This document shows, in pieces, positions 9,640 to 44,541 of a stretch of DNA of 64,000 nucleotides (position 1 is the stretch's first letter; every line of letters starts with the position of its first letter). The DNA is from a virus. Under the pieces are notes generated by a model. That model was not told the origin of the DNA. It worked only from the letters and a program-made list of their open reading frames with translations, and did not search any database. The DNA lies in IMG/VR virus record IMGVR_UViG_3300031569_001508, positions 1-64,000 of that record; one strand, 5' to 3'. The translations under genes were made by a program, and so were the position numbers.

Positions 9640-12600
9640 ATGTCAAAAGCATCAGAAATAAGAGAATTAAACAAGCAGTTAGAAGCACTTGAAAAAAAAT
9701 ACAAGGAATTAAATAGAATTTCTCCTTTTCAAGGGAAAGATGCTAAAGAAGTAGCAAAACAATATGGCTCTGTAAATAAAGCAATGAAGGAAGTTGCAAC
9801 TTCTTTTACGGGCATTAGGGCTGACATCTTAGAAATGGACTCTGGATTAGATGGTTTAAAGTCTATATTTGCAGACATTGGTAAAGAATTAGGGGATATG
9901 GATAATCCTTTAAAAGCAGCAACTAAATCATTCAAAAAATTAAGAAACTTTGCTGAAGATTTATCTGATATACAATATGATATATCTTCATCTTCAATGA
10001 AAGAAACTAAATCTTTAAAAACTAAAGTAAATTTAGAATTTAATAGATTAAAACGACAAAAAGCAGCTTTACAAAACCAATTACAAAGTAGTAACTTAAC
10101 TGCAAAAGAAAGAGATGCTACTATAGAATTAATTGAATTAGCATCTGATAAGGAAAAAGCAATGGAAGGTCAAGTTGGATATCAATCTGACTTTAACAAA
10201 GCTTTAAATACAACCCTTAAACGCCAAAAAAGAATTAGTAATGCTACTGGTTTAACAGGAAAAGCAATAAAAGGATTAAGTGGATTTGCAGAAAAGATAG
10301 GTTTTGGTGATATGGGTGATGATCTTGATGACATACAATCGCAAATGAAAGATCAAGCTGTTACTTTAACAGATAATGGTAAAAAGGCAGCAGGTTTAGG
10401 AGGACAGTTTAAAATAATGGGTACTGGATTAAAAGGTTTAGGTAAATCTTTAGCTTCAGCTTTAACAGATCCTCTTGTTATTGTAACTATGATAGTAAAA
10501 GCTGTTAAATTTTTATTTAAAATATTTACATCAACTTTAGATAAAGTTAATAAAGTAGGACAAGCCTTTGGGGTAGCAGGAAAAAATGCTGAATTTTTAA
10601 AAAATCAAATTACCGCAGCTGGGGATGCATCTGGAAATGTTTTTTACTTTACTGAAGAATTAATAGAAGCTCAAAAAGAATTAAATAATGTAGCTGGAGT
10701 AACTTTAAAATTTAATGAAGCTAATGCAAAATCTTTTCAAGATTTAACTTTATACGCTGGTTATAGTGCAGAGCAAATAAAAGCATTAACAAAATTATCC
10801 TATGAGGCAGGAGTTCCTTTAATGGAGATGGAAAATGCTGTGGTAGGTACATTAAATGCAGCTAATGATGCAACTGGCATTTATATAGATCAAAATGCTA
10901 TATTTAACCAATTACAGGGTGCTAGTGCAAGTGTAAGATTTAATATTAAAGGTGGAACTGAAGGTTTAGTAAAAGCAGCACATACTGCAGCTAGGTTAGG
11001 AACTACAATGGATGAAATAGCTGCAGCTTCTAAAACACATTTAGATTTTGAGTCTTCAATAGCTAAAGAAATTGAAGCAGAAATGTTTCTCCAAAAAGAT
11101 TTAAGTTTAGATAAATTAAGACATGCAGTAGCAACAGGAGACACAGCTACTATGGCAGCAGAACAATTAAGACTTGTTACAGAGAATAAAAAAGCACTTG
11201 AGGGTAATGTATTTGCTCAAGAAGCATTTTCTGGTTTATTAGGAATATCTCAGGATAAACTAACTGAAATGATGTTAGGTGAGAAAAAGTTAGCAAATAT
11301 TAAAAAAGATCAATTAAAGACTGAAAAAGCTTCAGGTAAAGAAATGTCTGATCAAGGTAAAGAAGCAGTTGCATTTGATAGAAGTATGCAAAGTGCTGTA
11401 AAGCAATTAAAGACTGCTTTAGAACCTATAGCTAAAAAAATAGGTCCTGTTATATTAAACATGGTTCAAGCAATAGGTCCTATAATTGAAAAAGTATTAA
11501 CTTTCTTAGGAGGCCCATATGGAAAAATAATGATGGGATTAGCAGCAGGATTTTTAGCTATTAAGGGTGCTGTAGCTATAGTAAGTAAAGTTAAAAGTTT
11601 CTTTGGAAAAGGTTTTGCGGCATTTGGAAAAAGAGGTTCAAATCCTTTTAACCCTATGTTTGTAGAAGATGCTACTGGAAGTGGTGGTGGTGGTGGCGGC
11701 GGCGGTGGCGGCGGCGGAGGTGGAAGTCGAGGAAATAAAGGAGTTACGTACGATAAAAAAGCTAAGAGATATAGAAACTCAAAAGGCCAATTTACTAAAA
11801 AACCAAAAGGATTTAAACCAAAAACAAGATTTAAAGGTAGAGGTAGAGGACTAGCGGGTTTACTACTAGCTGGAGGGGGAATGATGTTGGCAAATTCATT
11901 AATGTCAGGTGGAGGTGAAAATAGTGAAGGTGTAGATGAATATGGAAACCCAATTGAAGGTGGAGGTGGAATGAGTACAAATGCTATGGTTGGTGGCGGA
12001 ATGATGGGTGTTAGTGGAATGGATATGGGTTTAATGGGTGCTGAAGTAGGAGCAGATGCATTAACTGGGAATATGGGTAATAAAGCAAAAACAACACCAA
12101 AACCAAAACCAAAACCAAAACCTAAACCAAAACCAAAAGCAAGTAAAGGATTTTTTAGTAATCTATATGATGGGGCAAAAAATATGGCTAGCAATGCCTA
12201 CTCAGGAGCAAAAGGAATGGCTAGCAGTGCCTACTCAGGAGTTAGTAATGCCTATCAAGGAGCAAAAGGAATGGCTAGTAATGCCTATCAAGGAGCAAAA
12301 GGAATGGCTAGTAATGCTTATCAAGGAGCAAAAGGAATGGCTAGTAGCGCTTATCAAGGAGCAAAAGGAATGATGCCTGATTTTGTTGGGCAGTCTAAAA
12401 AATGGTTAGGATCTAAAATGGGTAGCATTTTTCCAACCTTAATTAAAAAAGTAAAAGATCCTTTAAAGTCAGTTTTAAGTAAAATCCCATTTATAGGAGC
12501 TATTATGGAGATGTTATTTACAGGAATGGATGTAAATTCAATTGCTAAATCTAAAGATATGTCTCCATCTGAAATGTATGGGGAGATGGGTTCATCTATA

Positions 12601-13035
12601 ATAAGTGGTGGTATGGGATTAGTTGGTGGTTCTTTAGCAGCTGCTGGGGTTTCATCTTTACAGGCAGTAGGAATACCTGGATGGTTACTTTCAGGTGCAG
12701 CTTATATGGGAGGTGATTATTTAGGTAGAATGTTAGGAGATGCAATAGCAGATTATGTAGGAGGACCGGCATTAGGAAAATCAATATTTGATTTATTTTA
12801 CTCAGATTCTCCAAAAGGGGGAGATGGGGAAGTCGCTATGTTAGCAAAAGGAGGTATAGTAAATCAAGCAACTCCTGCAATTATAGGAGAAGCAGGGCCA
12901 GAAGCAGTTATACCTTTAACTAAATTTTATGAAAAAATAGATGAACTAATAAAAGTTGTAAAACAGCAAGGAACAGTTTATTTAGATGGAGTTAAAGTAG
13001 GAGAAGTATTAGCTTTACAATCATCAGCAATGTAG
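9640..13035 (+). CDS. Tape measure protein
   Basis: 1131 aa, helical, A/G/K/M rich; C-terminal LAKGGIV...IIGEAGPEAVIPL; position after the tail chaperones. Confidence 0.88.
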   Translation: MSKASEIRELNKQLEALEKKYKELNRISPFQGKDAKEVAKQYGSVNKAMKEVATSFTGIRADILEMDSGLDGLKSIFADIGKELGDMDNPLKAATKSFKKLRNFAEDLSDIQYDISSSSMKETKSLKTKVNLEFNRLKRQKAALQNQLQSSNLTAKERDATIELIELASDKEKAMEGQVGYQSDFNKALNTTLKRQKRISNATGLTGKAIKGLSGFAEKIGFGDMGDDLDDIQSQMKDQAVTLTDNGKKAAGLGGQFKIMGTGLKGLGKSLASALTDPLVIVTMIVKAVKFLFKIFTSTLDKVNKVGQAFGVAGKNAEFLKNQITAAGDASGNVFYFTEELIEAQKELNNVAGVTLKFNEANAKSFQDLTLYAGYSAEQIKALTKLSYEAGVPLMEMENAVVGTLNAANDATGIYIDQNAIFNQLQGASASVRFNIKGGTEGLVKAAHTAARLGTTMDEIAAASKTHLDFESSIAKEIEAEMFLQKDLSLDKLRHAVATGDTATMAAEQLRLVTENKKALEGNVFAQEAFSGLLGISQDKLTEMMLGEKKLANIKKDQLKTEKASGKEMSDQGKEAVAFDRSMQSAVKQLKTALEPIAKKIGPVILNMVQAIGPIIEKVLTFLGGPYGKIMMGLAAGFLAIKGAVAIVSKVKSFFGKGFAAFGKRGSNPFNPMFVEDATGSGGGGGGGGGGGGGGSRGNKGVTYDKKAKRYRNSKGQFTKKPKGFKPKTRFKGRGRGLAGLLLAGGGMMLANSLMSGGGENSEGVDEYGNPIEGGGGMSTNAMVGGGMMGVSGMDMGLMGAEVGADALTGNMGNKAKTTPKPKPKPKPKPKPKASKGFFSNLYDGAKNMASNAYSGAKGMASSAYSGVSNAYQGAKGMASNAYQGAKGMASNAYQGAKGMASSAYQGAKGMMPDFVGQSKKWLGSKMGSIFPTLIKKVKDPLKSVLSKIPFIGAIMEMLFTGMDVNSIAKSKDMSPSEMYGEMGSSIISGGMGLVGGSLAAAGVSSLQAVGIPGWLLSGAAYMGGDYLGRMLGDAIADYVGGPALGKSIFDLFYSDSPKGGDGEVAMLAKGGIVNQATPAIIGEAGPEAVIPLTKFYEKIDELIKVVKQQGTVYLDGVKVGEVLALQSSAM
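12172..12373 (+). repeat. 33-bp tandem repeat (GAKGMASNAYQ, 11 aa) in the tape measure gene
   Basis: ggagcaaaaggaatggctagtaatgcctatcaa repeated about 5-6 times, with one shortened unit. Confidence 0.92.
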
Positions 13036-19884: not shown

Positions 19885-21144
19885 ATGTTTTGGTTAGTTG
19901 AAGATGAAGAGCAGTTAAAAACGTTTAAAAACTATTGTAGTGGAGATGTTTTTATTGAAATCATTCCATACGATAATAGAGAACATCCTACTCAAAATAA
20001 AATATGTGCTTTTTATATTCGCCCGTTAAATTCAACAAAAGGTTATATATTGCCCATATCCCACGACGAAACATTAAACATTGATTTATACGCCGTAAAA
20101 CGCGTAATAGACAATATAAACAACATATATGTACGTGATAAAAAAGAATTTTTACATTATTTAATATTTAAAAGCCTTTTGGACACAACACTAAATGGTC
20201 CTATGTATATACCAGAGTTAACAAAAACACATAATTACTTTTATACTAAATATCCTAATAAAAAAGACATAAACAGAATAATACCTATAGTTAAACATTA
20301 TGAGTATTGTGAAAACATATTTAACGACTTAAAAACAAAAATAAATGAGCCAATCAACGACTTTTACAACACGAAAGCCACAGTGGTTTTCAACGCCATG
20401 GAGCAAAGTGGTGTACGAATTGATAAAGAAAGATTTGAATCGCACTTTCACCCTATCGATAGAGAATTCATCTACACGCAATACAACTTTAAAACAACAA
20501 CAACAAGACCCTCAAACAAATTTGGAGGAGTAAATTATGCGGCACTTAATAAAGAAAATGGATGTAGAGAAAGCTTTATACCACGCAATGATAGGTTTAT
20601 TGAGTTGGACATTGGTGCTTATCATCCTACTCTTTTGGGTTTGTTGGTTGGGTATAATTTTGGTAATAAAGATATACATGAATCTTTTGCAAAAATGTAC
20701 GGCGTTAATTACAAAAAAGCTAAAGAGTTAACATTTAAACAACTATACGGAGGAGTATTTGAACAGTTTAAAGATCTGGAGTTTTTTAAGAAAGTACAAG
20801 TATATGTAGATGAAATGTGGGAAAAATTTAACCAAGAAGGTTACATTGAGTGTCCTATTTCAAACCATAAATACGAAAAGAGTAAATTAGAGGATATGAA
20901 ACCTCAAAAGTTATTAAATTATGTACTCCAAAACTTGGAGACAGCAATGAATATTCGTATATTATGGGAGATATTTAAGTTATTAAGGGGGTATAAAACT
21001 AAATTAGTATTATATACTTATGATAGTTTCTTATTTGATTTTAAGGAGGGAGAAGAAACACTAATTATGGAAATAAAAGCTATATTTAACAATAATAAGC
21101 TTCAAATAAAAGAAAGTTATGGAAACAACTACAATTTTAAATAA
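19885..21144 (+). CDS. Short divergent family-A DNA polymerase-like protein
   Basis: TTTRPSN; motif A ELDIGAYHP, motif B KAKELTFKQLYGG, motif C LYTYDSFLFD; only 419 aa. Confidence 0.8.
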   Translation: MFWLVEDEEQLKTFKNYCSGDVFIEIIPYDNREHPTQNKICAFYIRPLNSTKGYILPISHDETLNIDLYAVKRVIDNINNIYVRDKKEFLHYLIFKSLLDTTLNGPMYIPELTKTHNYFYTKYPNKKDINRIIPIVKHYEYCENIFNDLKTKINEPINDFYNTKATVVFNAMEQSGVRIDKERFESHFHPIDREFIYTQYNFKTTTTRPSNKFGGVNYAALNKENGCRESFIPRNDRFIELDIGAYHPTLLGLLVGYNFGNKDIHESFAKMYGVNYKKAKELTFKQLYGGVFEQFKDLEFFKKVQVYVDEMWEKFNQEGYIECPISNHKYEKSKLEDMKPQKLLNYVLQNLETAMNIRILWEIFKLLRGYKTKLVLYTYDSFLFDFKEGEETLIMEIKAIFNNNKLQIKESYGNNYNFK

Positions 21145-35936: not shown

Positions 35937-36082
35937 TGGTAGAATTTTTTAAACATGCATTTGGGCTTTGTGGTGAACATTGGCATCCAAATATTTGGAC
36001 TTTTCTTCTAGGTGGGCTTGGACTGCAACAATCTTTTACGTATATTAATTATAAAATAAAAAGTTATGGCAATAAAAGTTAG
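35936..36082 (+). CDS. Small His/Cys-containing hypothetical protein (not in ORF track)
   Basis: Manual translation MVEFFKHAFGLCGEHWHPNIWTFLLGGLGLQQSFTYINYKIKSYGNKS; TAATG coupling. Confidence 0.55.
   Translation: MVEFFKHAFGLCGEHWHPNIWTFLLGGLGLQQSFTYINYKIKSYGNKS
36018..36046 (+). promoter_or_regulatory. Early promoter TTGG-N18-GTATATT driving the deazaguanine cluster
   Basis: ttggactgcaacaatcttttacgtatatt. Confidence 0.72.
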
Positions 36083-36857
36083 TCACGAAGCACCCATGTG
36101 CCTTTTAGACGATAGTATGAGATTTAATGATTATGACTATTGTCTTCCTCATTTATTAGATCAAGAACCTAAATATTTAGAATATTTTAAAAAAGCTAAA
36201 GCAGCGGGTCGTTATATTATAATGGATAATTCACTTCATGAATTAGGTGAAGCATATGACCATTCACGTTTGATACATTGGGTAAACGAGCTAAAACCAA
36301 ATGAATTTATAATTCCGGATGTATGGGAAAATATGGAGGAATCTATTCAAAATGCTACTATTTGGGAAATTTATGATTTTCCTAATAGTGTAGAAAAAAT
36401 AGCAGTTGTTCAAGCTAAAACGATTCATGAGGCATCTGAATGTACTAAAGCTTATAAAGATATGGGGTTTGGCAAAATATGTTATTCATATGGAGCATCT
36501 TATTATAATGATGTTTGCCCCCACCCAAATAAGGATTTAGGAAAAGCATTAGGAAGATTGGCAGTAATATCAGCCTTAATGAAAATGGGGGATATAAAAC
36601 AAGATGATAGGATTCATTTATTAGGGTGTGCTGTTCCTCAAGAATTTGGATGGTATAAGGATATTAATTGTATAGAATCTATAGATACATCAAATCCTAT
36701 AATGGCTACTTTAGAAGATATTCAATACATGAATAGTGGTTTGTATAAAAAACCTAAAGCAAATATGAATGATTTTTTCTATATGTTAGATAATCAAGTT
36801 GATTTTGATCTTTTAACTTATAATTTAGAAATGTTTAAAAAAATTAATAATTTATAA
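36066..36857 (+). CDS. dpdA: TGT-fold protein, DpdA-like (7-deazaguanine DNA modification)
   Basis: IIMDNS, IAVVQ, RIHLLG and IESIDTS motifs of the TGT/DpdA barrel; immediately upstream of queC. Confidence 0.7.
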   Translation: MAIKVSHEAPMCLLDDSMRFNDYDYCLPHLLDQEPKYLEYFKKAKAAGRYIIMDNSLHELGEAYDHSRLIHWVNELKPNEFIIPDVWENMEESIQNATIWEIYDFPNSVEKIAVVQAKTIHEASECTKAYKDMGFGKICYSYGASYYNDVCPHPNKDLGKALGRLAVISALMKMGDIKQDDRIHLLGCAVPQEFGWYKDINCIESIDTSNPIMATLEDIQYMNSGLYKKPKANMNDFFYMLDNQVDFDLLTYNLEMFKKINNL

Positions 36858-36865
36858 AATAAAAA

Positions 36866-37696
36866 ATGACACAAATGGAAATTAATTTTAAGGATTCACA
36901 ACGTCCTAAACACGCAGTAGTATCACTTTCAGGTGGTATGGATTCAAGTACATTATTACTTAAATGTCTTGATAAATTTAAAACGGTAACAGCTTTATCT
37001 TTTGATTATGGTCAAAAACACAAAGTTGAACTTAAAAGAGCAAGAGCATTAGTAGATTATTTAAAGAGAAATGGACATAATGTTACATATCAAATAATTG
37101 AATTAAAGGGGTTGGTATCATTACTTGACTCAGCATTAGTAGAAGGTGGGGATGAAGTTCCAGAAGGACATTATGCTGCTGAAAATATGAAAGCTACAGT
37201 AGTACCTAATCGTAATAAAATATTTGCATCAATTTCCCAAGCAGTAGCTTTATCAATAGCTAATAAAACAGAAGAAAAAACTTCAATTGCTTTAGGAATT
37301 CATGCAGGTGACCATGATATTTATCCTGATTGTAGACAAGAATTTAGAGATGCAGATGATAAAGCATTTAGAGAAGGTAATTGGGATGCTGATAGAGTGG
37401 GGTATTATACACCTTATTTAAAAGGAGATAAATTTACAATTCTTCAAGATGGAGAAATATTATGTAAAAAGTTAGGAATTGATTTTGATGAAGTATATGC
37501 TAGAACTAATACTTCATATAAACCAACACCTGAAGGATGGTCAGATTATAAATCAGCGTCATCAGTTGAAAGAGTAGAAGCATTCATAAAATTAGGAAGA
37601 CCTGATCCTGTACAATATGCAGATGAAACTGGTCCTGTTGATTATGAAGTAGCAAAATCTTATGTTGAACAAGTGTTAGAAAATTATGAAGGATAA
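36866..37696 (+). CDS. queC: 7-cyano-7-deazaguanine synthase
   Basis: SLSGGMDSS, FDYGQKH, TVVPNRN, YPDCR. Confidence 0.92.
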   Translation: MTQMEINFKDSQRPKHAVVSLSGGMDSSTLLLKCLDKFKTVTALSFDYGQKHKVELKRARALVDYLKRNGHNVTYQIIELKGLVSLLDSALVEGGDEVPEGHYAAENMKATVVPNRNKIFASISQAVALSIANKTEEKTSIALGIHAGDHDIYPDCRQEFRDADDKAFREGNWDADRVGYYTPYLKGDKFTILQDGEILCKKLGIDFDEVYARTNTSYKPTPEGWSDYKSASSVERVEAFIKLGRPDPVQYADETGPVDYEVAKSYVEQVLENYEG

Positions 37697-37859
37697 TAAA
37701 TTAGAAAAAATCCCAGATCCAAAACTACACCAACAGATAAGTTTTATTAAGTCAGGTGTTCGTATATTAGGGTATTGTTTTATTCCTTTTAGCTTGGTTT
37801 TTGCAACTATTTTACTTATATTAAGTGAATTAATAGGTATAATTGAAGAATTAGTTTAA
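37686..37859 (+). CDS. Small membrane protein (not in ORF track)
   Basis: Manual translation MKDNKLEKIPDPKLHQQISFIKSGVRILGYCFIPFSLVFATILLILSELIGIIEELV. Confidence 0.7.
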   Translation: MKDNKLEKIPDPKLHQQISFIKSGVRILGYCFIPFSLVFATILLILSELIGIIEELV

Positions 37860-37875
37860 TAATAAAAACAAAAAA

Positions 37876-38127
37876 ATGAAAAAAATATTATATTTCTCAG
37901 CAGCATGGTGTGGTCCTTGTAAAGTACTGGGCCCTGTAATGGATAAATTAAAAATGGATGGAATGCCCGTTCAAAAAATAGATGTAGATTCAAACCAGGA
38001 AATGTCAACAAAGTATGGAGTTAGAAATATTCCATGTTTAGTATTAGTTGATAACATGGGGAATGAACTTAAAAGATTAGTTGGTAATAAACCTTCTAAT
38101 GAAATTCAAAATTGGTACAATAATTAA
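37876..38127 (+). CDS. trxA: Thioredoxin
   Basis: WCGPC active site, YGVRNIP. Confidence 0.92.
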   Translation: MKKILYFSAAWCGPCKVLGPVMDKLKMDGMPVQKIDVDSNQEMSTKYGVRNIPCLVLVDNMGNELKRLVGNKPSNEIQNWYNN

Positions 38128-38137
38128 AAACAAAAAA

Positions 38138-38458
38138 ATGAAATATCAAAATCAAAATGTTGGCATATTATACTTTTCAAATCCCTCTTCTGAAGCAGAA
38201 AGTGTTGGTAAAATAGTAGACGGGGTTATGAGACAAGTAGGTAGAGACATACCAGTAAGAAAAGTAAATTCTGATTATGAAGTAACTATAGTAGAAAAAG
38301 CAAAACCTACAAAAGTTCCATCAATTATATTTACAGATAATTCTGGGGATCTAGAGCACCTTAGAATAGAAGGATCAAGTTTATCAACTATAACTGTTGA
38401 AGGGGTATTAAATATAGTACAAGATATTATTAAATTTAATTCAAAAAATAATGGGTAA
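38138..38458 (+). CDS. Thioredoxin-fold paralogue lacking CXXC
   Basis: ILYFSNPSSEAES aligns with ILYFSAAWCGPCK; IPVRKVNSD, KVPSIIF; ATG at 38138 (track start 38081). Confidence 0.65.
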   Translation: MKYQNQNVGILYFSNPSSEAESVGKIVDGVMRQVGRDIPVRKVNSDYEVTIVEKAKPTKVPSIIFTDNSGDLEHLRIEGSSLSTITVEGVLNIVQDIIKFNSKNNG

Positions 38459-38915
38459 ATATCAATCAAGTAAAGTATTTGATGGCTTTAGCACAGTATT
38501 CCGTCAATGGAAAGCAAAAGAAACACATTGTAGATTTGTTCATGGTTATGGTATTTCCTTTAAAGTTTACTTCGAAGGTGACTTAGATGAAAAAAATTGG
38601 GTTTGGGATTTTGGAGGGATGAAGCGTGCTAAAACCTTAATTAATGGTTTACAACCTAAAGCGTGGATGGATTATATGTTTGATCATACTATGGTTATAG
38701 CAGAAGATGATCCTGAAATAGATGCATTTAAACAAATGGATCAAGCAGGAGTAGCACAAGTAAGAATTATACCCGCTACTGGAGCAGAGAAATTTGCTGA
38801 ATATATTTATAATAACATAAATGAATTTGTTAAAACTGAAACTAGTAATAGGGTTAGGGTTACTAAAGTTAAATTTATGGAACATGGTAAAAATGCTGCA
38901 TATTACAGCGAGTAA
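38451..38915 (+). CDS. queD: 6-carboxytetrahydropterin synthase
   Basis: HCRFVHGY, WVWDFG, FDHT, GAEKFAEY. Confidence 0.9.
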   Translation: MGKYQSSKVFDGFSTVFRQWKAKETHCRFVHGYGISFKVYFEGDLDEKNWVWDFGGMKRAKTLINGLQPKAWMDYMFDHTMVIAEDDPEIDAFKQMDQAGVAQVRIIPATGAEKFAEYIYNNINEFVKTETSNRVRVTKVKFMEHGKNAAYYSE

Positions 38916-38957
38916 AAGAATAATAGTGAATGAAAAACCACTTAAAAAAATTAACGG

Positions 38958-39743
38958 ATGCATAAGCAATTAAAAAGGGTTACAGACTACGAAAAAAACT
39001 TACCCATTGTAGAAATCTACACAGCAGTACAATCAGAAGGATCTAGAGCAGGCTATCCTACAGTAGTAATTAGAACAACAGGATGCACACATAGGTGTTA
39101 TTTTGGAGAAGGAGGATGGTGTGATTCATGGTATACAAGCATTCACCCTGAAAAAGGACATTTCAATTTTAATGATATAATTGCAATGTATAAAAAAAAT
39201 CCCCATATTAAAGAAATGATGCTAACTGGAGGTTCTCCTACTATGCATGCTGCTTTAGTAAATGAACTAACACACTTTGCACATGAAAATAATATATTTA
39301 TTACTATTGAAACTGAGGGAAGTCATTTTCTACCCACAGACTATCCTATTAATCTTTTATCTATTAGCCCTAAGTTTTCTAATTCTGTCCCAGTTGTAGG
39401 GGTTTTAACACCTCAAGGAGGAATTACTGATGAAAAGATGATAAAAACACATAATAGGCTTAGACTTAATTATGATGCAATTAAGCAATCTATTGCTTAT
39501 CACTCAGATTATCATATAAAACCTGTTTGGGATGGTAAAGATGAAAATGCTTTAGCTGAAATTATGGAATGTTTAAAGATACTTGATGTATCCCAAGATA
39601 AAGTTTGGTTTATGCCTGCAGGAGATTCAAGAGAATCTTTATTTAAATCTTATCCTGTATTATTTGATTGGGTTAGAGATAATGGTTATAGAATGACATG
39701 GAGACCTCATATTATCGCTTTTGAAGATAAAAGAGAAGTATAA
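38958..39743 (+). CDS. queE: 7-carboxy-7-deazaguanine synthase (radical SAM)
   Basis: VQSEG, RTTGCTHRC...WCDS, LTGGSP, IETEG, SISPK. Confidence 0.92.
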   Translation: MHKQLKRVTDYEKNLPIVEIYTAVQSEGSRAGYPTVVIRTTGCTHRCYFGEGGWCDSWYTSIHPEKGHFNFNDIIAMYKKNPHIKEMMLTGGSPTMHAALVNELTHFAHENNIFITIETEGSHFLPTDYPINLLSISPKFSNSVPVVGVLTPQGGITDEKMIKTHNRLRLNYDAIKQSIAYHSDYHIKPVWDGKDENALAEIMECLKILDVSQDKVWFMPAGDSRESLFKSYPVLFDWVRDNGYRMTWRPHIIAFEDKREV

Positions 39744-39877
39744 TGTCTAAAGAAGAAGCAATTGAGGTGCTAGAAGAAATAGCTGAAAATGTTAGCGTTT
39801 GTTGTGCTATAACGATGGAACCCGATGAAGTATTAGTATTAATTGATAAATTAAAAAAATATTTAGAAAATGAATAA
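39743..39877 (+). CDS. Small hypothetical protein (not in ORF track)
   Basis: MSKEEAIEVLEEIAENVSVCCAITMEPDEVLVLIDKLKKYLENE; TAATG coupling. Confidence 0.6.
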   Translation: MSKEEAIEVLEEIAENVSVCCAITMEPDEVLVLIDKLKKYLENE

Positions 39878-40241
39878 ATATATTTATGGAGCAAAATTAT
39901 TAAGAGTAGTAGACGGAGACACAGCTGATTGTATGATTGATTTAGGTTTTGATACTTGGGTAAAAGCAAGATTAAGATTTAAAGGTGTAGATACTTGGGA
40001 GAAAAGAACAAGAGATAAGGGTGAAAAAGTAAAAGGAATAGCAGCATCTGCTTTTACTACTAGTTATTTAGAAAAAAATGACGGTAATTTTACTATCCAA
40101 TCTTATGGGAAAGGAAAATATGGTAGAATATTAGCAGAAATTTTTATTGAAGGGGAAGAAAAATCATTAAATACACTATTAATAGAAAATGGACATGCTT
40201 ATGTTTATGATGGGGGTAAAAAACAAATATTTAAAGGATAA
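39870..40241 (+). CDS. Staphylococcal nuclease (thermonuclease) homologue
   Basis: RVVDGDT, RLRFKGVDTWE, GKYGRILA, LIENGHAYVY. Confidence 0.88.
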   Translation: MNKYIYGAKLLRVVDGDTADCMIDLGFDTWVKARLRFKGVDTWEKRTRDKGEKVKGIAASAFTTSYLEKNDGNFTIQSYGKGKYGRILAEIFIEGEEKSLNTLLIENGHAYVYDGGKKQIFKG

Positions 40242-40244
40242 ATA

Positions 40245-40676
40245 ATGTTACAAATAGGAAATAAATCCTTCCTTAGTTGGGATGATGTAGAAGTTTTAGT
40301 AAAAAAGTTATGTAATAAAATTACACAATCGAACTTAGATATAAAGTATATTTGGGGTCTTCCAAGAGGAGGATTAATTCCAGCAGTTATGGTTTCACAC
40401 AAATTAGGGATTCCAATGACTAAAGGTACAATAACTCCCGATACTCTAATTATAGATGATATATGTGATAGTGGTGTTACATTAGCAAATTTCTATAAAA
40501 CCTATCAAGACGAATTTGCATTTCCGTTTGATTTAAAAACAGCAGTTTTACACTATAAACCCCAAACATCAGTTTTTGAACCAACTCTATTTGCTAATCA
40601 ATGGAGTAGTAACAACTGGATTATTTATCCTTGGGAAAGAAAAGACTCAAAGTCTATTCAAGACTATAAAATATAG
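40245..40676 (+). CDS. Purine phosphoribosyltransferase (Gpt-like type I PRTase)
   Basis: GLPRGGLIPA; PRPP-binding LIIDDICDSGVT; WIIYPWE. Confidence 0.9.
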   Translation: MLQIGNKSFLSWDDVEVLVKKLCNKITQSNLDIKYIWGLPRGGLIPAVMVSHKLGIPMTKGTITPDTLIIDDICDSGVTLANFYKTYQDEFAFPFDLKTAVLHYKPQTSVFEPTLFANQWSSNNWIIYPWERKDSKSIQDYKI

Positions 40677-40677
40677 T

Positions 40678-40706
40678 TTGGAATTCCACTAAATTATTCG
40701 TATATT
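40678..40706 (+). promoter_or_regulatory. Early promoter TTGG-N18-GTATATT
   Basis: Upstream of folE. Confidence 0.8.
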
Positions 40707-40727
40707 ATATCAAATAAAAAATTAATA

Positions 40728-41426
40728 ATGGCAGAAAACAAACGAAGAAAAATTCACGAGGAATTAGAAGTAGTACAAGAAGGTTTTGCTAATGGTGTTG
40801 CACCTGGTTTTCCTTTAAAACAGTCTGAAAAAGATAAAATGATTATTCAAGCAGAAAAGGCATATGGTCAATTTTTAGATGCTTTAAAATGTGATTGGAG
40901 AAATGATCCAAATTCAATGGAAACACCTCGTCGAGTAGCTAAAGCATATGTAAACGATTTATGGGCTGGCAGATACACTGCAATGTCTCCAATAACATCA
41001 TTTCCTTCAGATGGCTATGATGGAATTATTATAGAACGTAATATACCTTTAACTTCAATGTGTTCCCATCACCACCAAACAATAGGGGGTGTAGTTCATA
41101 TTGGTTATATAGCTGGAGATAATGGCCAAGTAATTGGTTTATCTAAATTAAATAGAATTGTAGAATTGTTTGGTAGAAGAGGTGCTATTCAAGAACAACT
41201 CACATCAGCAATACATAATGCTGTAAATAAAGTAACTGAAGGTAATAAAGGTGTTATTATTACTATAGTTGCAGGACATAATTGTGTAAGTTGTAGAGGT
41301 GTAAAACATCAAGGAGCTGCTATGGTAACAACAAAGGCATCAGGTGTATTTAGAGAAAATGATAATTTAGCAAGAAAAGAATTTTTTGACAGTCTAAAGA
41401 TTAATAACGGAGGACATAATATTTAA
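40728..41426 (+). CDS. folE: GTP cyclohydrolase I
   Basis: ETPRRVAK, SMCSHHH, GLSKLNRIV, QEQLT, HNCVSCRGV. Confidence 0.95.
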   Translation: MAENKRRKIHEELEVVQEGFANGVAPGFPLKQSEKDKMIIQAEKAYGQFLDALKCDWRNDPNSMETPRRVAKAYVNDLWAGRYTAMSPITSFPSDGYDGIIIERNIPLTSMCSHHHQTIGGVVHIGYIAGDNGQVIGLSKLNRIVELFGRRGAIQEQLTSAIHNAVNKVTEGNKGVIITIVAGHNCVSCRGVKHQGAAMVTTKASGVFRENDNLARKEFFDSLKINNGGHNI

Positions 41427-41439
41427 ATAAATAAAAGTT

Positions 41440-41937
41440 ATGAATAAAAATAATGTACCATTTGTAAATGAAGTAGAGGAATTTAATTCCACTATGGGTA
41501 AACCTAATAATTATGAACCTACAATTCCCGAAAAAAAAGAATGGCAGTTTGTATACGATTTTATCCTTGAAGAACTTGAAGAATATAAAGAAGCTTGCGA
41601 AAGAGGAGATATCGTGGAAGTTTTGGATGCTCTTTGTGATATTACTTATGTTTCCCTTGGGAACGGTGCTATGTTACATGGTCTTAAGGATAAGGTATGG
41701 CCAGCCTATCAAGAAGTACAAGGTTCGAATATGTCAAAGGCTTGCATTAACGAAGAAGAAGCACAAGCGACAGTTAAAGTCCGTTCCAAAGAACAAGATG
41801 AACCGTGTCACTATGAAAAGGTTGGTAAATATTATATTGTCTATAGAACACGTGATAAAAAAGTAATGAAAAATGTTAATTATTATAGACCAAATTTATC
41901 ACAATTTTTTACTAAAGAAGAATTAAAGAATGTATAA
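41440..41937 (+). CDS. All-alpha NTP pyrophosphohydrolase (MazG-like)
   Basis: EELEEY...EVLDALCDITYV...EVQGSNMSK. Confidence 0.85.
   Translation: MNKNNVPFVNEVEEFNSTMGKPNNYEPTIPEKKEWQFVYDFILEELEEYKEACERGDIVEVLDALCDITYVSLGNGAMLHGLKDKVWPAYQEVQGSNMSKACINEEEAQATVKVRSKEQDEPCHYEKVGKYYIVYRTRDKKVMKNVNYYRPNLSQFFTKEELKNV
41513..41866 (+). CDS. Candidate overprinted (+1 frame) basic membrane protein within the MazG-like gene
   Basis: 117-aa open frame with TM segment WKFWMLFVILLMFPLGTVLCYMVL; host-gene codons avoid +1 stops. Confidence 0.45.
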   Translation: MNLQFPKKKNGSLYTILSLKNLKNIKKLAKEEISWKFWMLFVILLMFPLGTVLCYMVLRIRYGQPIKKYKVRICQRLALTKKKHKRQLKSVPKNKMNRVTMKRLVNIILSIEHVIKK

Positions 41938-43612
41938 AAAGGCATTTGCACGACGTCTTAAAGATAATAAATTTTTAATTCATTTATGGGAAGATAGTGG
42001 CTATTCTAAAGTAGAATGGGATAATAAAGCTTACATAGAATGTCATGAAGCCGATGCTCAATATACTGGGTTAAATGGTGAACCTCTAAAAAAGATATCT
42101 AATTGGAGGTCTGATAATTCAAAATTGCATTTTCATGATATGCCTGCTTATCAAAAGTTTTTAGTAGAAAAATATGGTGTTAATGATGAACCCTCTACAA
42201 CACATAGAGAAGTATTTTTTGATATTGAAACCGAAATGGGGGATGCTCTTACTGAAGAGTATATTAAATCTGCTCCTAAAAAAGTAACATCAATTGCTTG
42301 GTATGATAAACAGGTAGACTTATGGGGTATTGTGATTCTTGATCCTAAGGGTCAACTAGAACATACTAAAGCTAAAAATAAAGAAATTATACCTTGTAAG
42401 ACAGAAGGGGAGTTATTAGCAAAATTTTTAGAATTATTTAGAGAAATAGACCCAGATATAATTGTAGGGTGGAATAGTGATTATTTTGATGTTCCATATC
42501 TATACTATAGAATGTGTAATGTGTTAGGGGAAGAGTTTGCTAAACATTTATCTCCTATAGGGTATGTAAGAGAAACACCTTGGTTTAAGGACCAATACAT
42601 ACAAATATGTGGTGTTGAGTCTTTAGATTATATGCGTTTACATAAAAAGTTTAGTTGGGCAGATGAACCTTCAATGAGGTTAGACGCTATTGGGGAGAAA
42701 TATGTTGGTATGAATAAGATAGAATATGAGGGTAATCTTGATGCTTTATTTGAAACTGACATACATAAATTCATTAAATATAACTTTGTTGATGTTGAAA
42801 TATTAAAAAAGTTAGATGAAAAATTGGATTATTTAGCACTTGTTAAAAATCTATCTCATAAAGGAAAACATAACTATAGTGAAGTATATGCTAATACTAA
42901 AACCCAAGATGGAGCAATTTCCGCTTACTTATTAAGTAAAAATATAATTCCACCTGCTAAAGATAGAAACCCAATGTCTAAAAAAGGATATGCTGGTGGT
43001 TATTTATTTTGCCCTAAAGCAGGAATTTATAATTATGTGTTTGATGAAGATTTAACTTCACTATATCCATCAATTATAATGACTATTAATATTGGTAAAG
43101 AAACTATGGTTGGTAGAATTATAGATGCTGATGACAGAAATAATCGTTTAGGATTAAATGATTTAAAGTGTAGAGATTACGCAGAAGAAGTTATTGTTGA
43201 AAATATTAAAAGGAATAGAACTAAAGTTAGTATAGGTAGAATAGTTAAAATGATAGAAGGAAATAATTTATCAGTTTCAGCAAATGGTGTCATGTTTAAC
43301 ACAGATCGTGAATCAGTACTTTCTACAATATTAAAAAAGTGGTTTGACGAAAGGGTTTTATATAAAAATAAAATGCAAAAAGCATTTAAATCAGGTAATA
43401 AAGAGTTAGGTGTTGCTTACCATATGAAACAATATACTATGAAGATTCTACTTAATTCGTTATATGGCGCTACAGCATTGGGCTCATTCCGTTATGGGAA
43501 TGTTATATTATCTGAAGCTATAACGCTTAGTGGACAGCGTATAATACAAGAATCTGCACTAACAGCAAATACTCATATGAATAAAGTTATAAGAGAAGAA
43601 ATTACATTATGA
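41930..43612 (+). CDS. DNA polymerase family B, N-terminal part (exonuclease plus motifs A and B)
   Basis: FFDIET, GWNSDYFDVPY, YNFVDV, DLTSLYPSI, KILLNSLYG. Confidence 0.92.
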   Translation: MYKKAFARRLKDNKFLIHLWEDSGYSKVEWDNKAYIECHEADAQYTGLNGEPLKKISNWRSDNSKLHFHDMPAYQKFLVEKYGVNDEPSTTHREVFFDIETEMGDALTEEYIKSAPKKVTSIAWYDKQVDLWGIVILDPKGQLEHTKAKNKEIIPCKTEGELLAKFLELFREIDPDIIVGWNSDYFDVPYLYYRMCNVLGEEFAKHLSPIGYVRETPWFKDQYIQICGVESLDYMRLHKKFSWADEPSMRLDAIGEKYVGMNKIEYEGNLDALFETDIHKFIKYNFVDVEILKKLDEKLDYLALVKNLSHKGKHNYSEVYANTKTQDGAISAYLLSKNIIPPAKDRNPMSKKGYAGGYLFCPKAGIYNYVFDEDLTSLYPSIIMTINIGKETMVGRIIDADDRNNRLGLNDLKCRDYAEEVIVENIKRNRTKVSIGRIVKMIEGNNLSVSANGVMFNTDRESVLSTILKKWFDERVLYKNKMQKAFKSGNKELGVAYHMKQYTMKILLNSLYGATALGSFRYGNVILSEAITLSGQRIIQESALTANTHMNKVIREEITL

Positions 43613-44541
43613 AACATTTAGAAGATACTCCTTGGTGGATTTGTGATCCTGATGATAATAATTATGTAGCATATTCTGACACAGATTCTATTTACATCCA
43701 TGCTGAACCTTTACTTAGACATTTATACCCATCATTTGATGAAATGCCTAGTGAAGAAAAAGATGATAAATTAGAAGAAATTGCTTTAAAATATCAAGAT
43801 ATTATAACAGATTCTTATAGTTCTTTAGCTATGGATTGTTTTAACGCTAAGGGAAAACACAGGTTAGAAATGAAAACAGAATGTGTTATTAGATCAGCTT
43901 ATTTTAGAGCTACAAGGCGTTATGCTCAATGGATTACTAAACAAGAAGGCATAACAAAGGAAACATTAGATGTTAAAGGGCTAGAATTTAAAAAGGCAAA
44001 TTTTCCTCCAGTGTTAGGTGATTTTTTTAGAAAAGCATTAATTGATGTTTTAAAAGGAGCGGAACAAAGTGAAATAGATGGTAGACTAAAATTATTTAAA
44101 ACACAGATTCTAGATGGGACTATACCTTTAACTAAGTTAGGGAACCCAACATCCGTAAAAAAATTAAATAAATACACAGAACGTAAAGCTAGAGCTGGAG
44201 AAATGTTTTCAATTATGGCTAAAGGAGCACCTGCAGCTGTTAAAGCAACTGTAGTTTATAATGATTTATTAAAATTTTGGGGTTTACATAAAGAACATAA
44301 TTATATAACCCAAGGTAGTAAAGTAAAATGGATATATATGAGGCCAAACCCTTACCAAATTGATGCTATTGCTTTTTTAGATTATGATTTACCAGATAAA
44401 ATTCGTATATTCATTGAGCAATATGCAGATAGAAAGAAAATATTCGAGTCCATATTATTAAATAAATTAGAGGGATTTTATAATGATTTAGGGTGGACAC
44501 TAAATTTAAACCCCTACCAACAAATGTTTTTCAATATATGA
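43609..44541 (+). CDS. DNA polymerase family B, C-terminal part (motif C and thumb)
   Basis: YSDTDSIY, RRYA, KGLE; ATGA overlap with the upstream half. Confidence 0.9.
   Translation: MKHLEDTPWWICDPDDNNYVAYSDTDSIYIHAEPLLRHLYPSFDEMPSEEKDDKLEEIALKYQDIITDSYSSLAMDCFNAKGKHRLEMKTECVIRSAYFRATRRYAQWITKQEGITKETLDVKGLEFKKANFPPVLGDFFRKALIDVLKGAEQSEIDGRLKLFKTQILDGTIPLTKLGNPTSVKKLNKYTERKARAGEMFSIMAKGAPAAVKATVVYNDLLKFWGLHKEHNYITQGSKVKWIYMRPNPYQIDAIAFLDYDLPDKIRIFIEQYADRKKIFESILLNKLEGFYNDLGWTLNLNPYQQMFFNI

Follow-up and report, generated by a model that had tools for sequence, protein, structure and literature searches.

A +1-frame gene, very probably born by overprinting, inside the MazG-like gene of Immutovirus-like phages

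Gene E of phage phiX174, which lies in the +1 frame of the scaffold gene D, and the o-spanin gene Rz1 of phage lambda, which lies in the +1 frame of Rz, are the textbook examples of embedded genes. Here we describe an open reading frame (ORF) of the same arrangement at positions 41513..41866 (+ strand) of a 64,000-nucleotide (nt) stretch of viral DNA, hereafter the window, which is part of the IMG/VR virus record IMGVR_UViG_3300031569_001508 (82,170 bases, estimated to be about 50% complete). The ORF comprises 117 amino acids (aa) and a stop codon, encodes a very basic protein with a central hydrophobic segment, and is read in the +1 frame of a MazG-like gene (41440..41937, + strand, frame 0, 165 aa), which we call the host gene. 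Its distribution and codon pattern among related phages very probably mark it as a true protein-coding gene, born de novo when the MazG-like gene was overprinted. Overprinting is a well-described route to new viral genes (Pavesi 2021, PMC8227390; Sabath et al. 2012, PMC3494269). Overprinting and embedded +1 genes are already known as a kind, to which this gene is an added case. New are the ORF-lacking basal orthologues with the birth node, the turnover of the start codon, and the negative results on synonymous suppression and on conservation of a transmembrane (TM) helix.

The ORF starts at an ATG (41513..41515, + strand) made by the host codons Tyr25-Glu26 (TAT GAA), 73 nt downstream of the MazG start, and ends at 41864-41866 in the first of two tandem +1 stops (TAA TGA, 41864..41869, + strand), which are made by host Val142-Met143-Lys144 and represent the usual end of the ORF. 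The last upstream +1 stop is a TAG across host Val12-Glu13 (41474..41476, + strand), present at the same place in most homologues, and 129 +1 codons lie open between the stops at 41474 and 41864. These positions bear out the initial annotation, made from the DNA letters alone, which had placed a 117-aa ORF at 41513-41866 in a +1 frame open for about 130 codons from about 41477. Its by-eye estimate of one +1 stop per ten codons was equally accurate: in 73 non-overlapping, ATG-started window ORFs of at least 80 aa, picked greedily by length, 1947 +1 stops were counted in 19625 codons (0.099 per codon), next to 0.143 per codon in the +2 frame. In 166 codons the MazG-like gene contains 6 +1 stops, and no +1 run among the 73 ORFs stays open longer than its 129 codons. 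The second-longest run, 102 codons at 12065..12373 inside a 1132-codon gene (9640..13035), was rejected as a repeat artefact, since Pro-Lys and Gly-Ala (GAKGMASNAYQ-type) repeat composition explains it.

Within the open stretch 15 codon pairs could make a +1 stop synonymously, and 8.5 stops are expected from the codon usage of the window. Three shuffle nulls of 20,000 shuffles each gave probabilities for a run of at least 129 codons of 5e-5 (synonymous resampling with window codon usage), 5e-5 (codon-order shuffle) and 0.003 (synonymous permutation within the gene), in agreement with the earlier judgement that such a run is unlikely by chance. The weaker value of the within-gene permutation indicates that part of the single-sequence signal is the gene's own unusual codon usage, which is the expected effect of a second frame and could also have other causes. 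The codon pattern on which the initial annotation had been built was confirmed as well: CTT, TTG, ATC and GTG precede purines, and GTA and TTA precede only pyrimidines.

The evidence that carries the finding is comparative. A search of IMG/VR returned 482 relatives, of which the best 80 per query were used. Together with the locus from Flavobacterium phage vB_FspM_immuto (genus Immutovirus, 160 kb; hereafter immuto), the closest cultured relative, they formed a first set of 70 distinct nucleotide sequences with 78-100% protein identity. Added queries, namely protein representatives at 50-70% identity and one intermediate locus, enlarged the collection to 199 loci; a near-full gene was present in 191 of these, giving 148 distinct sequences. 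Eight loci of 20-40% identity (L082-L085 and L107-L110) were dropped; the more distant relatives L107-L110 have 8 +1 stops each. Trees rooted on the most distant orthologues as outgroup separate 29 sequences, which form a basal grade, from 119 that form a crown clade (support of the node 0.87 in the nucleotide tree).

In the first set, 69 of 70 sequences are free of +1 stops in host codons 25-127, and such stops are common just outside, at codons 9, 12, 18, 19, 142, 143, 153 and 162. Over the same codons, 106 of the 119 crown sequences have no +1 stop, 11 have one and 2 have two, whereas all 29 sequences of the basal grade have between 2 and 9 (median 7). The stops of the grade fall on sites that are protected in the crown (codons 43, 46, 58, 59, 62, 68, 73, 82 and 112). 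Many grade sequences match the window's protein in this stretch at 75-83%, as closely as crown members do, and divergence of the host protein is thus no explanation for the open versus the closed frame. The proposal of the initial annotation that selection maintains a second reading frame was upheld by this comparison of orthologues.

The avoidance of stops depends on the base that follows. In the first set, Leu43, Leu46, Leu62, Leu73 and Leu82, each before a purine, are encoded by CTT, CTC, TTG or CTG and almost never by TTA or CTA, whereas Leu65 and Leu79, each before a pyrimidine, are TTA or CTA in 44/70 and 70/70 sequences. Across codons 25-127 of this set, Leu, Ile and Val codons ending in TA (NTA) account for 1 of 693 occurrences before a purine and 331 of 676 before a pyrimidine. 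The neighbouring gene for GTP cyclohydrolase I (FolE), locatable in 45 of the 70 loci, served as control and showed 769/1618 before purines and 231/467 before pyrimidines (Fisher P 5e-150 for the contrast between MazG and FolE). The +1 frame of FolE contains 18.7 stops per 232 codons (minimum 9), and the +2 frame of the MazG stretch contains 12.9 per sequence. The pattern recurs in the larger sample, where NTA is found in 15/1200 codons before purines and 549/1159 before pyrimidines in the crown, as against 184/321 before purines in the grade.

Changes mapped on the trees point the same way. For the first set, codons 25-127 underwent 50 synonymous changes at sites at risk of a +1 stop, one of which made a stop, compared with 23 of 53 changes in codons 128-157 (Fisher P 2e-7). 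For the crown the figures were 5 of 87 changes in codons 25-127 and 45 of 98 in codons 128-157 (binomial P 1e-16). Synonymous heterozygosity was 0.346 against an expected 0.34, so that synonymous sites look saturated and the sequences are near-independent draws at these sites. Over about 100 codons, and within a single monophyletic group of host genes, purifying selection purges +1 stops. The overprinted ORF is carried by aquatic Bacteroidota phages that form one clade, the Immutovirus-like group of Flavobacterium phages with 7-deazaguanine DNA.

The beginning of the ORF is conserved and yet mobile. An ATG at host codons 25-26 occurs in 88 of 119 crown sequences and in none of the 29 grade sequences, because codon 26 of the grade is mostly Thr; host Tyr25 is TAT in 115/118 crown and 19/25 basal sequences. 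Among the 31 crown sequences lacking this ATG, 13 have one upstream, 17 have one downstream, and a single sequence (L149) has none. An ATG-started ORF consequently spans the core in 118/119 crown sequences, and 117 of these ORFs are at least 87 aa long. Eight sequences of the first set lack the codon-25 ATG; in five of them the upstream stops at codons 9 and 12 are gone too, and the ORF begins at about codon 5. In a subclade of 11 sequences, a stop at codon 43 is accompanied by an ATG at about codon 51, giving proteins of 91-95 aa that retain the hydrophobic and C-terminal parts. The ORF ends earlier in some lineages, at host codons 112, 117, 128, 133 or 140. Turnover of the start with retention of the core is, as far as sequences can tell, the behaviour of a translated gene, unlike that of a frameshift site.

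Some of the amino acids encoded in the +1 frame also appear constrained. In the crown, but not in the grade, some eight host-synonymous sites are frozen, all of which encode Leu, Ile or Phe in the +1 frame. Ala64 is GCT in 118/119 crown sequences (grade: GCA 17, GCT 10, GCC 2) and Ala101 is GCT in 107/107 crown and 15/25 grade sequences; within the crown, Asp84 is GAT in 110/111, Leu82 CTT in 115/117, Ile68 ATT in 107/117 and Val61 GTT in 80/94. Invariant fourfold sites number 4/28 in the overlap versus 0/71 in FolE, and at codons 76-91 the pairwise synonymous difference falls locally to 0.24-0.26. Where codons differ synonymously in the host frame, the resulting +1 replacements are less severe than expected (mean BLOSUM62 -0.28 versus -0.78), an effect missing from the FolE control (-1.52 versus -1.46). 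Selection thus acts weakly on the sequence of the +1 protein; it also keeps the ATG and freezes the eight or so synonymous host sites. Both the ATG and the open frame are missing from the basal orthologues.

The frame-0 protein was compared in the same manner. Amino-acid entropy differs between crown and grade by more than 1 bit only at Trp87, Gln91 and position 122, and this comparison, with five far outgroups left out, revealed no regional freezing of frame-0 residues in the crown. Host residue 87 is Trp in 113/119 crown sequences and highly variable in the grade (Leu, Ile, Met, Glu and others). The codon for Trp87 encodes the near-invariant Gly63 of the +1 protein, and at this codon the new frame may constrain the old protein.

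The window copy of the product contains 22 Lys, 7 Arg, 3 Glu and no Asp, with an isoelectric point (pI) of 10.8, in keeping with its earlier description as Lys-rich. This basic composition mirrors the acidic host protein, because GAA and GAG are read as AAG and AGG. Residues 36-59 form the hydrophobic segment (41618..41689, + strand), which overlaps the most conserved core of MazG (DIVEVLDALCDITYVSLGNGAML). Throughout the crown, hydrophobic positions 33-47 and 53-58 enclose a freely varying part at 48-52, and positions 37-42, 44 and 53-58 are hydrophobic in 88-100% of sequences. Up to residue 35 the N-terminus is polar and rich in Lys. A single Cys is conserved, at position 54 within the hydrophobic segment. 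That segment is followed by Arg-Ile-Lys/Arg-Tyr-Gly and then by two amphipathic stretches of basic character, at about 66-81 and 99-115. This conservation would suit a re-entrant hairpin of hydrophobic residues whose two basic tails lie on the same side, or a small bundle of helices, better than a single TM helix. The product is probably membrane-associated; the main alternative is a soluble nucleic-acid-binding helical protein.

As a de novo origin would lead one to expect, searching databases with the +1 protein revealed no free-standing homologue, and no paralogue turned up in the virus record. The phyletic range of the ORF is narrower than that of the host gene, which likewise fits such an origin. 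The database search yielded 40 proteins at E up to 0.001 among 60 candidates, of which 18, mostly the longer ones, were examined: 16 were chimeras of the MazG and +1 frames, 2 were pure +1 ORFs and none was a free-standing homologue, and the database matches therefore add no independent support. Some of the chimeric proteins switch back again, and dozens of such predictions exist in public metagenome assemblies. The search with protein representatives also returned many partial matches of high identity, which are probably chimeras too. The chimeras probably represent indel or assembly errors, unnoticed because the second frame is open, or else rare variants.

These chimeras bear on the possibility that RNA polymerase or the ribosome slips at a run of eight A (41531..41538, + strand, host codons 31-33), fusing MazG(1-33) to the +1 reading in a trans-frame product. 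The A8 run of the window lies just past the ATG, and 3 of the 18 database proteins examined switch frame exactly at the A-run (PEKK, then NG). The chimeras as a whole, however, switch at many different places, and none of the 191 IMG/VR genes is frameshifted. Nor is the slippery site conserved, since only 24 of the 119 crown sequences have a run of 8, and in 59 the run is 4 or shorter. In the 11-sequence subclade the +1 stop at codon 43 lies downstream of the A-run, the rest being open behind the ATG at about codon 51, so that a slippage product would terminate at once. Contigs from RNA libraries carry no indel at the A-run, though such contigs drop rare variants. Taken together, slippage is a highly improbable source of the pattern. 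Still less credible is an artefact of chance or composition, in which a locally more GC-rich codon usage at third positions was inherited by close relatives. The weaker P of the within-gene permutation (0.003) and the larger number of C- and G-ending codons in the crown than in the grade at many sites would agree with it, but NTA makes up 47% before pyrimidines versus 1.3% before purines in the same codons, and because the avoidance depends on the following base, composition alone is excluded. In addition, the effect stops sharply at either end (host codons 12-19 and 128-143), is seen neither in the +2 frame nor in FolE nor in basal orthologues that are equal in protein identity, and 82 of 87 independent synonymous risk-site changes avoided a stop. 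Chance or composition was accordingly rejected on the shuffles, the FolE and +2 controls, the NTA context and the tree counts. Structured RNA was also rejected as a cause of the codon pattern, as no Rfam match was obtained at E up to 1 in 41300..42100 and there is no general synonymous constraint.

A closer competitor, although we consider it unlikely, holds that the frame is translated into a functionless polypeptide and that selection acts on translation itself, through ribosome traffic, protection of the messenger RNA, or avoidance of a harmful short peptide from a strong internal start. The absence of stops is indeed the most visible signal, overall synonymous variation is normal and the centre of the hydrophobic segment varies freely. 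What such a polypeptide leaves unexplained is the set of about eight crown-only frozen sites, all Leu, Ile or Phe in the +1 frame, and the mildness of host-synonymous changes in that frame, which the control gene does not share. The N-truncated subclade, moreover, keeps precisely the hydrophobic and basic C-terminal part. Since the start of the next gene, 64 nt beyond the end of the ORF, already lies over the MazG stop, translational coupling would gain nothing.

Several observations weigh against a functional overprinted gene or against parts of its description. The suppression of synonymous variation that the initial annotation had led one to expect was not found on average: pairs of sequences differ synonymously by 0.373 over MazG codons 25-127 and by 0.361 over FolE, so that a Synplot2-type reduction over the overlap is lacking, and mean third-position entropy is alike in the crown (0.99) and the grade (0.91). 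Synonymous diversity that is not reduced means that most of the +1 protein evolves almost freely. The crown was defined on a nucleotide tree that contains the risk sites; the protein tree has the same general outline, except that it draws four sequences with the ORF or nearly so (L111, L121, L161 and L124) into the grade at low support. The one clear TM helix of the initial annotation holds for the window copy, whose best 19-residue Kyte-Doolittle (KD) window reaches 2.52, and does not appear to be a family trait, as only 52 of 118 crown copies attain the threshold KD value of 1.6. Positions 48-52 occur as 40 different 5-mers, with Arg or His at 48 in 35% and Glu at 52 in 44%. The TM region scored 1.51 in hydropathy compared with 1.05 under a synonymous-resampling null (per-sequence median P 0.16; P < 0.05 in 4/69 sequences), and by this nearness to the null the hydrophobic segment is mostly a by-product of the host frame. 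Searches of Pfam, PHROG and PDB gave no family match that would indicate a function: the window copy had no match to Pfam or PHROG families, 68 family members had weak, scattered profile matches only (best E 1.4e-4, Cornichon), and the best match of the PDB profile search had an E of 0.59 and pointed to no family. Contigs on 40700..42700 occur in four marine metatranscriptome libraries from three studies, and one RNA run contains error-free pieces at 41492-41602 and 41747-41904; since DNA may be present in these libraries and strand and level are not shown, the contigs demonstrate presence of the sequence only, neither translation nor secure transcription, and were not counted as expression.

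The host gene is well defined. Its product matches Pfam PF01503 (E 7.9e-11) and phrog_671 nucleotide pyrophosphohydrolase (E 3e-28), in agreement with a MazG-like/PRA-PH all-alpha nucleoside triphosphate (NTP) pyrophosphohydrolase, and the gene is 78% identical, in DNA and protein alike, to the annotated nucleoside triphosphate pyrophosphohydrolase of immuto. It is the fourth of five + strand genes arranged head to tail, after a thermonuclease-like gene (39870..40241), a phosphoribosyltransferase gene (PRT; 40245..40676) and folE (40728..41426), and before a family-B DNA polymerase gene that starts at 41930 and overlaps the MazG stop. FolE, the phosphoribosyltransferase and the polymerase (PolB) are part of a 7-deazaguanine DNA-modification module (36066..44541), which is the setting of the MazG-like gene. 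Immuto is reported to replace all its deoxyguanosine by a formylated preQ1 derivative (10.1101/2023.04.13.536721). In immuto the MazG-like gene is flanked, in place of PolB, by a DUF4494 gene, a 66-aa ORF and DpdA; with flanks that differ from those of the window, the neighbourhood of the host gene varies among crown members. The GenBank record of immuto lists nothing inside its pyrophosphohydrolase gene, where the +1 gene thus stands unannotated. No report of this gene was found in the literature on phage MazG overlapping genes, immuto and overprinting, and the main text of the 7-deazaguanine preprint (10.1101/2023.04.13.536721) has no occurrence of "overlapping", although its supplements may hold gene tables.

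If the ORF is expressed as a gene, ribosomes would start directly at the internal ATG on a folE-PRT-mazG-polB message; the leaders used by these hosts would be A-rich and without Shine-Dalgarno pairing. The predicted product, of 87-138 aa and a pI of about 11, would consist of a basic N-terminal tail, a hydrophobic helix-turn-helix (33-47, a variable turn at 48-52, and 53-58) and two basic amphipathic helices. We give even weight for and against the more specific view that the protein sits on or in the cytoplasmic membrane, perhaps as a re-entrant hairpin with both basic tails cytoplasmic, and is active alongside the nucleotide and replication genes in the early or middle phase, where it might for example help to take over the host or to exclude superinfecting phages. 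The suggestion of the initial annotation, a membrane effector or exclusion factor, is a guess. In the boldest, and improbable, version the product would work with its own module, for instance by attaching the machinery of the dNTP pool or of 7-deazaguanine replication to the membrane, or by timing that machinery.

A second overprinted locus is probably present in the same phage group. At 20345..20731, inside a PolA-like gene (19885..21144), two tandem +1 ORFs of 62 and 64-65 aa were observed, the second of them hydrophobic, and these too stay open in relatives. Each of 25 distinct IMG/VR homologues that match this part at 62-88% identity has only 1-2 +1 stops in codons 154-283, compared with flank means of 15.4 and 10.1 (two others, L223 with 7 stops and L237 with 8, were left out), and NTA before purines is found in 47/367 codons of the stretch versus 359/540 and 176/338 in the flanks. 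Unlikely, though worth stating, is the full combination: that the ORF in the MazG-like gene is a de novo gene in a large double-stranded DNA (dsDNA) phage, with its birth bracketed on a sampled phylogeny, and one of at least two conserved embedded +1 genes of the phage group, the other lying in the PolA-like gene. If true, big phages that have no shortage of coding space would be gaining small hydrophobic and basic proteins, by a route so far overlooked, from the routine overprinting of genes for replication and nucleotide metabolism.

Gene callers forbid long overlaps on the same strand, and such genes are therefore invisible in phage annotation. The comparative evidence is unusually clean, with 119 open crown sequences, 29 closed basal orthologues of similar identity and turnover of the start codon, and would recommend the locus as a natural case of a gene being born by overprinting in a large dsDNA phage. 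The locus offers the portrait of a young overlapping gene in which stops are purged, a few hydrophobic positions are frozen and the rest drifts, and carries the warning that Synplot-type tests of average synonymous suppression would miss such a gene. The cultured pair of immuto and Flavobacterium sp. LMO8 carries the ORF (117 aa, at 1562-1912 of the immuto locus L001), which makes the claim directly testable.

Compared with the textbook cases, the ORF resembles gene E of phiX174 in lying wholly embedded on the same strand in the +1 frame, in a birth by overprinting and in encoding a small protein that combines a hydrophobic helix with a tail of basic residues. Gene E, however, belongs to a 5.4-kb single-stranded DNA (ssDNA) phage under strong size pressure, whereas the present phages have dsDNA genomes of about 160 kb. 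E is a lysis protein whose N-terminal TM helix is well conserved; in the present protein the hydrophobic segment lies in the middle and does not appear to be conserved as a TM helix, the host gene belongs to a nucleotide and replication module, and no lysis role is indicated. Profile searches against Pfam, PHROG and PDB revealed no sequence similarity of the +1 protein to E. With lambda Rz1 the ORF shares the state of a fully embedded +1 gene in a dsDNA tailed phage that is prone to be missed by annotation. Rz1 is a lipoprotein with a signal peptide and a lipobox and works in lysis with the product of its host gene; the +1 protein, unlike Rz1, has no N-terminal signal and no lipobox of the usual pattern, no tool scan for the latter having been made, and nothing links it functionally to MazG in the way that Rz1 is linked to Rz. 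In the broader picture of viral overprinted genes (PMC8227390, PMC3494269), the ORF conforms to type in its narrow taxonomic range relative to a widespread host gene, in a biased composition set by the host frame (acidic host, basic +1 product) and in weak constraint. Most documented overprinted genes come from small RNA or ssDNA viruses, whereas the present one lies in a large dsDNA phage. Its birth node can be bracketed between sampled orthologues that lack the ORF and sampled orthologues that bear it.

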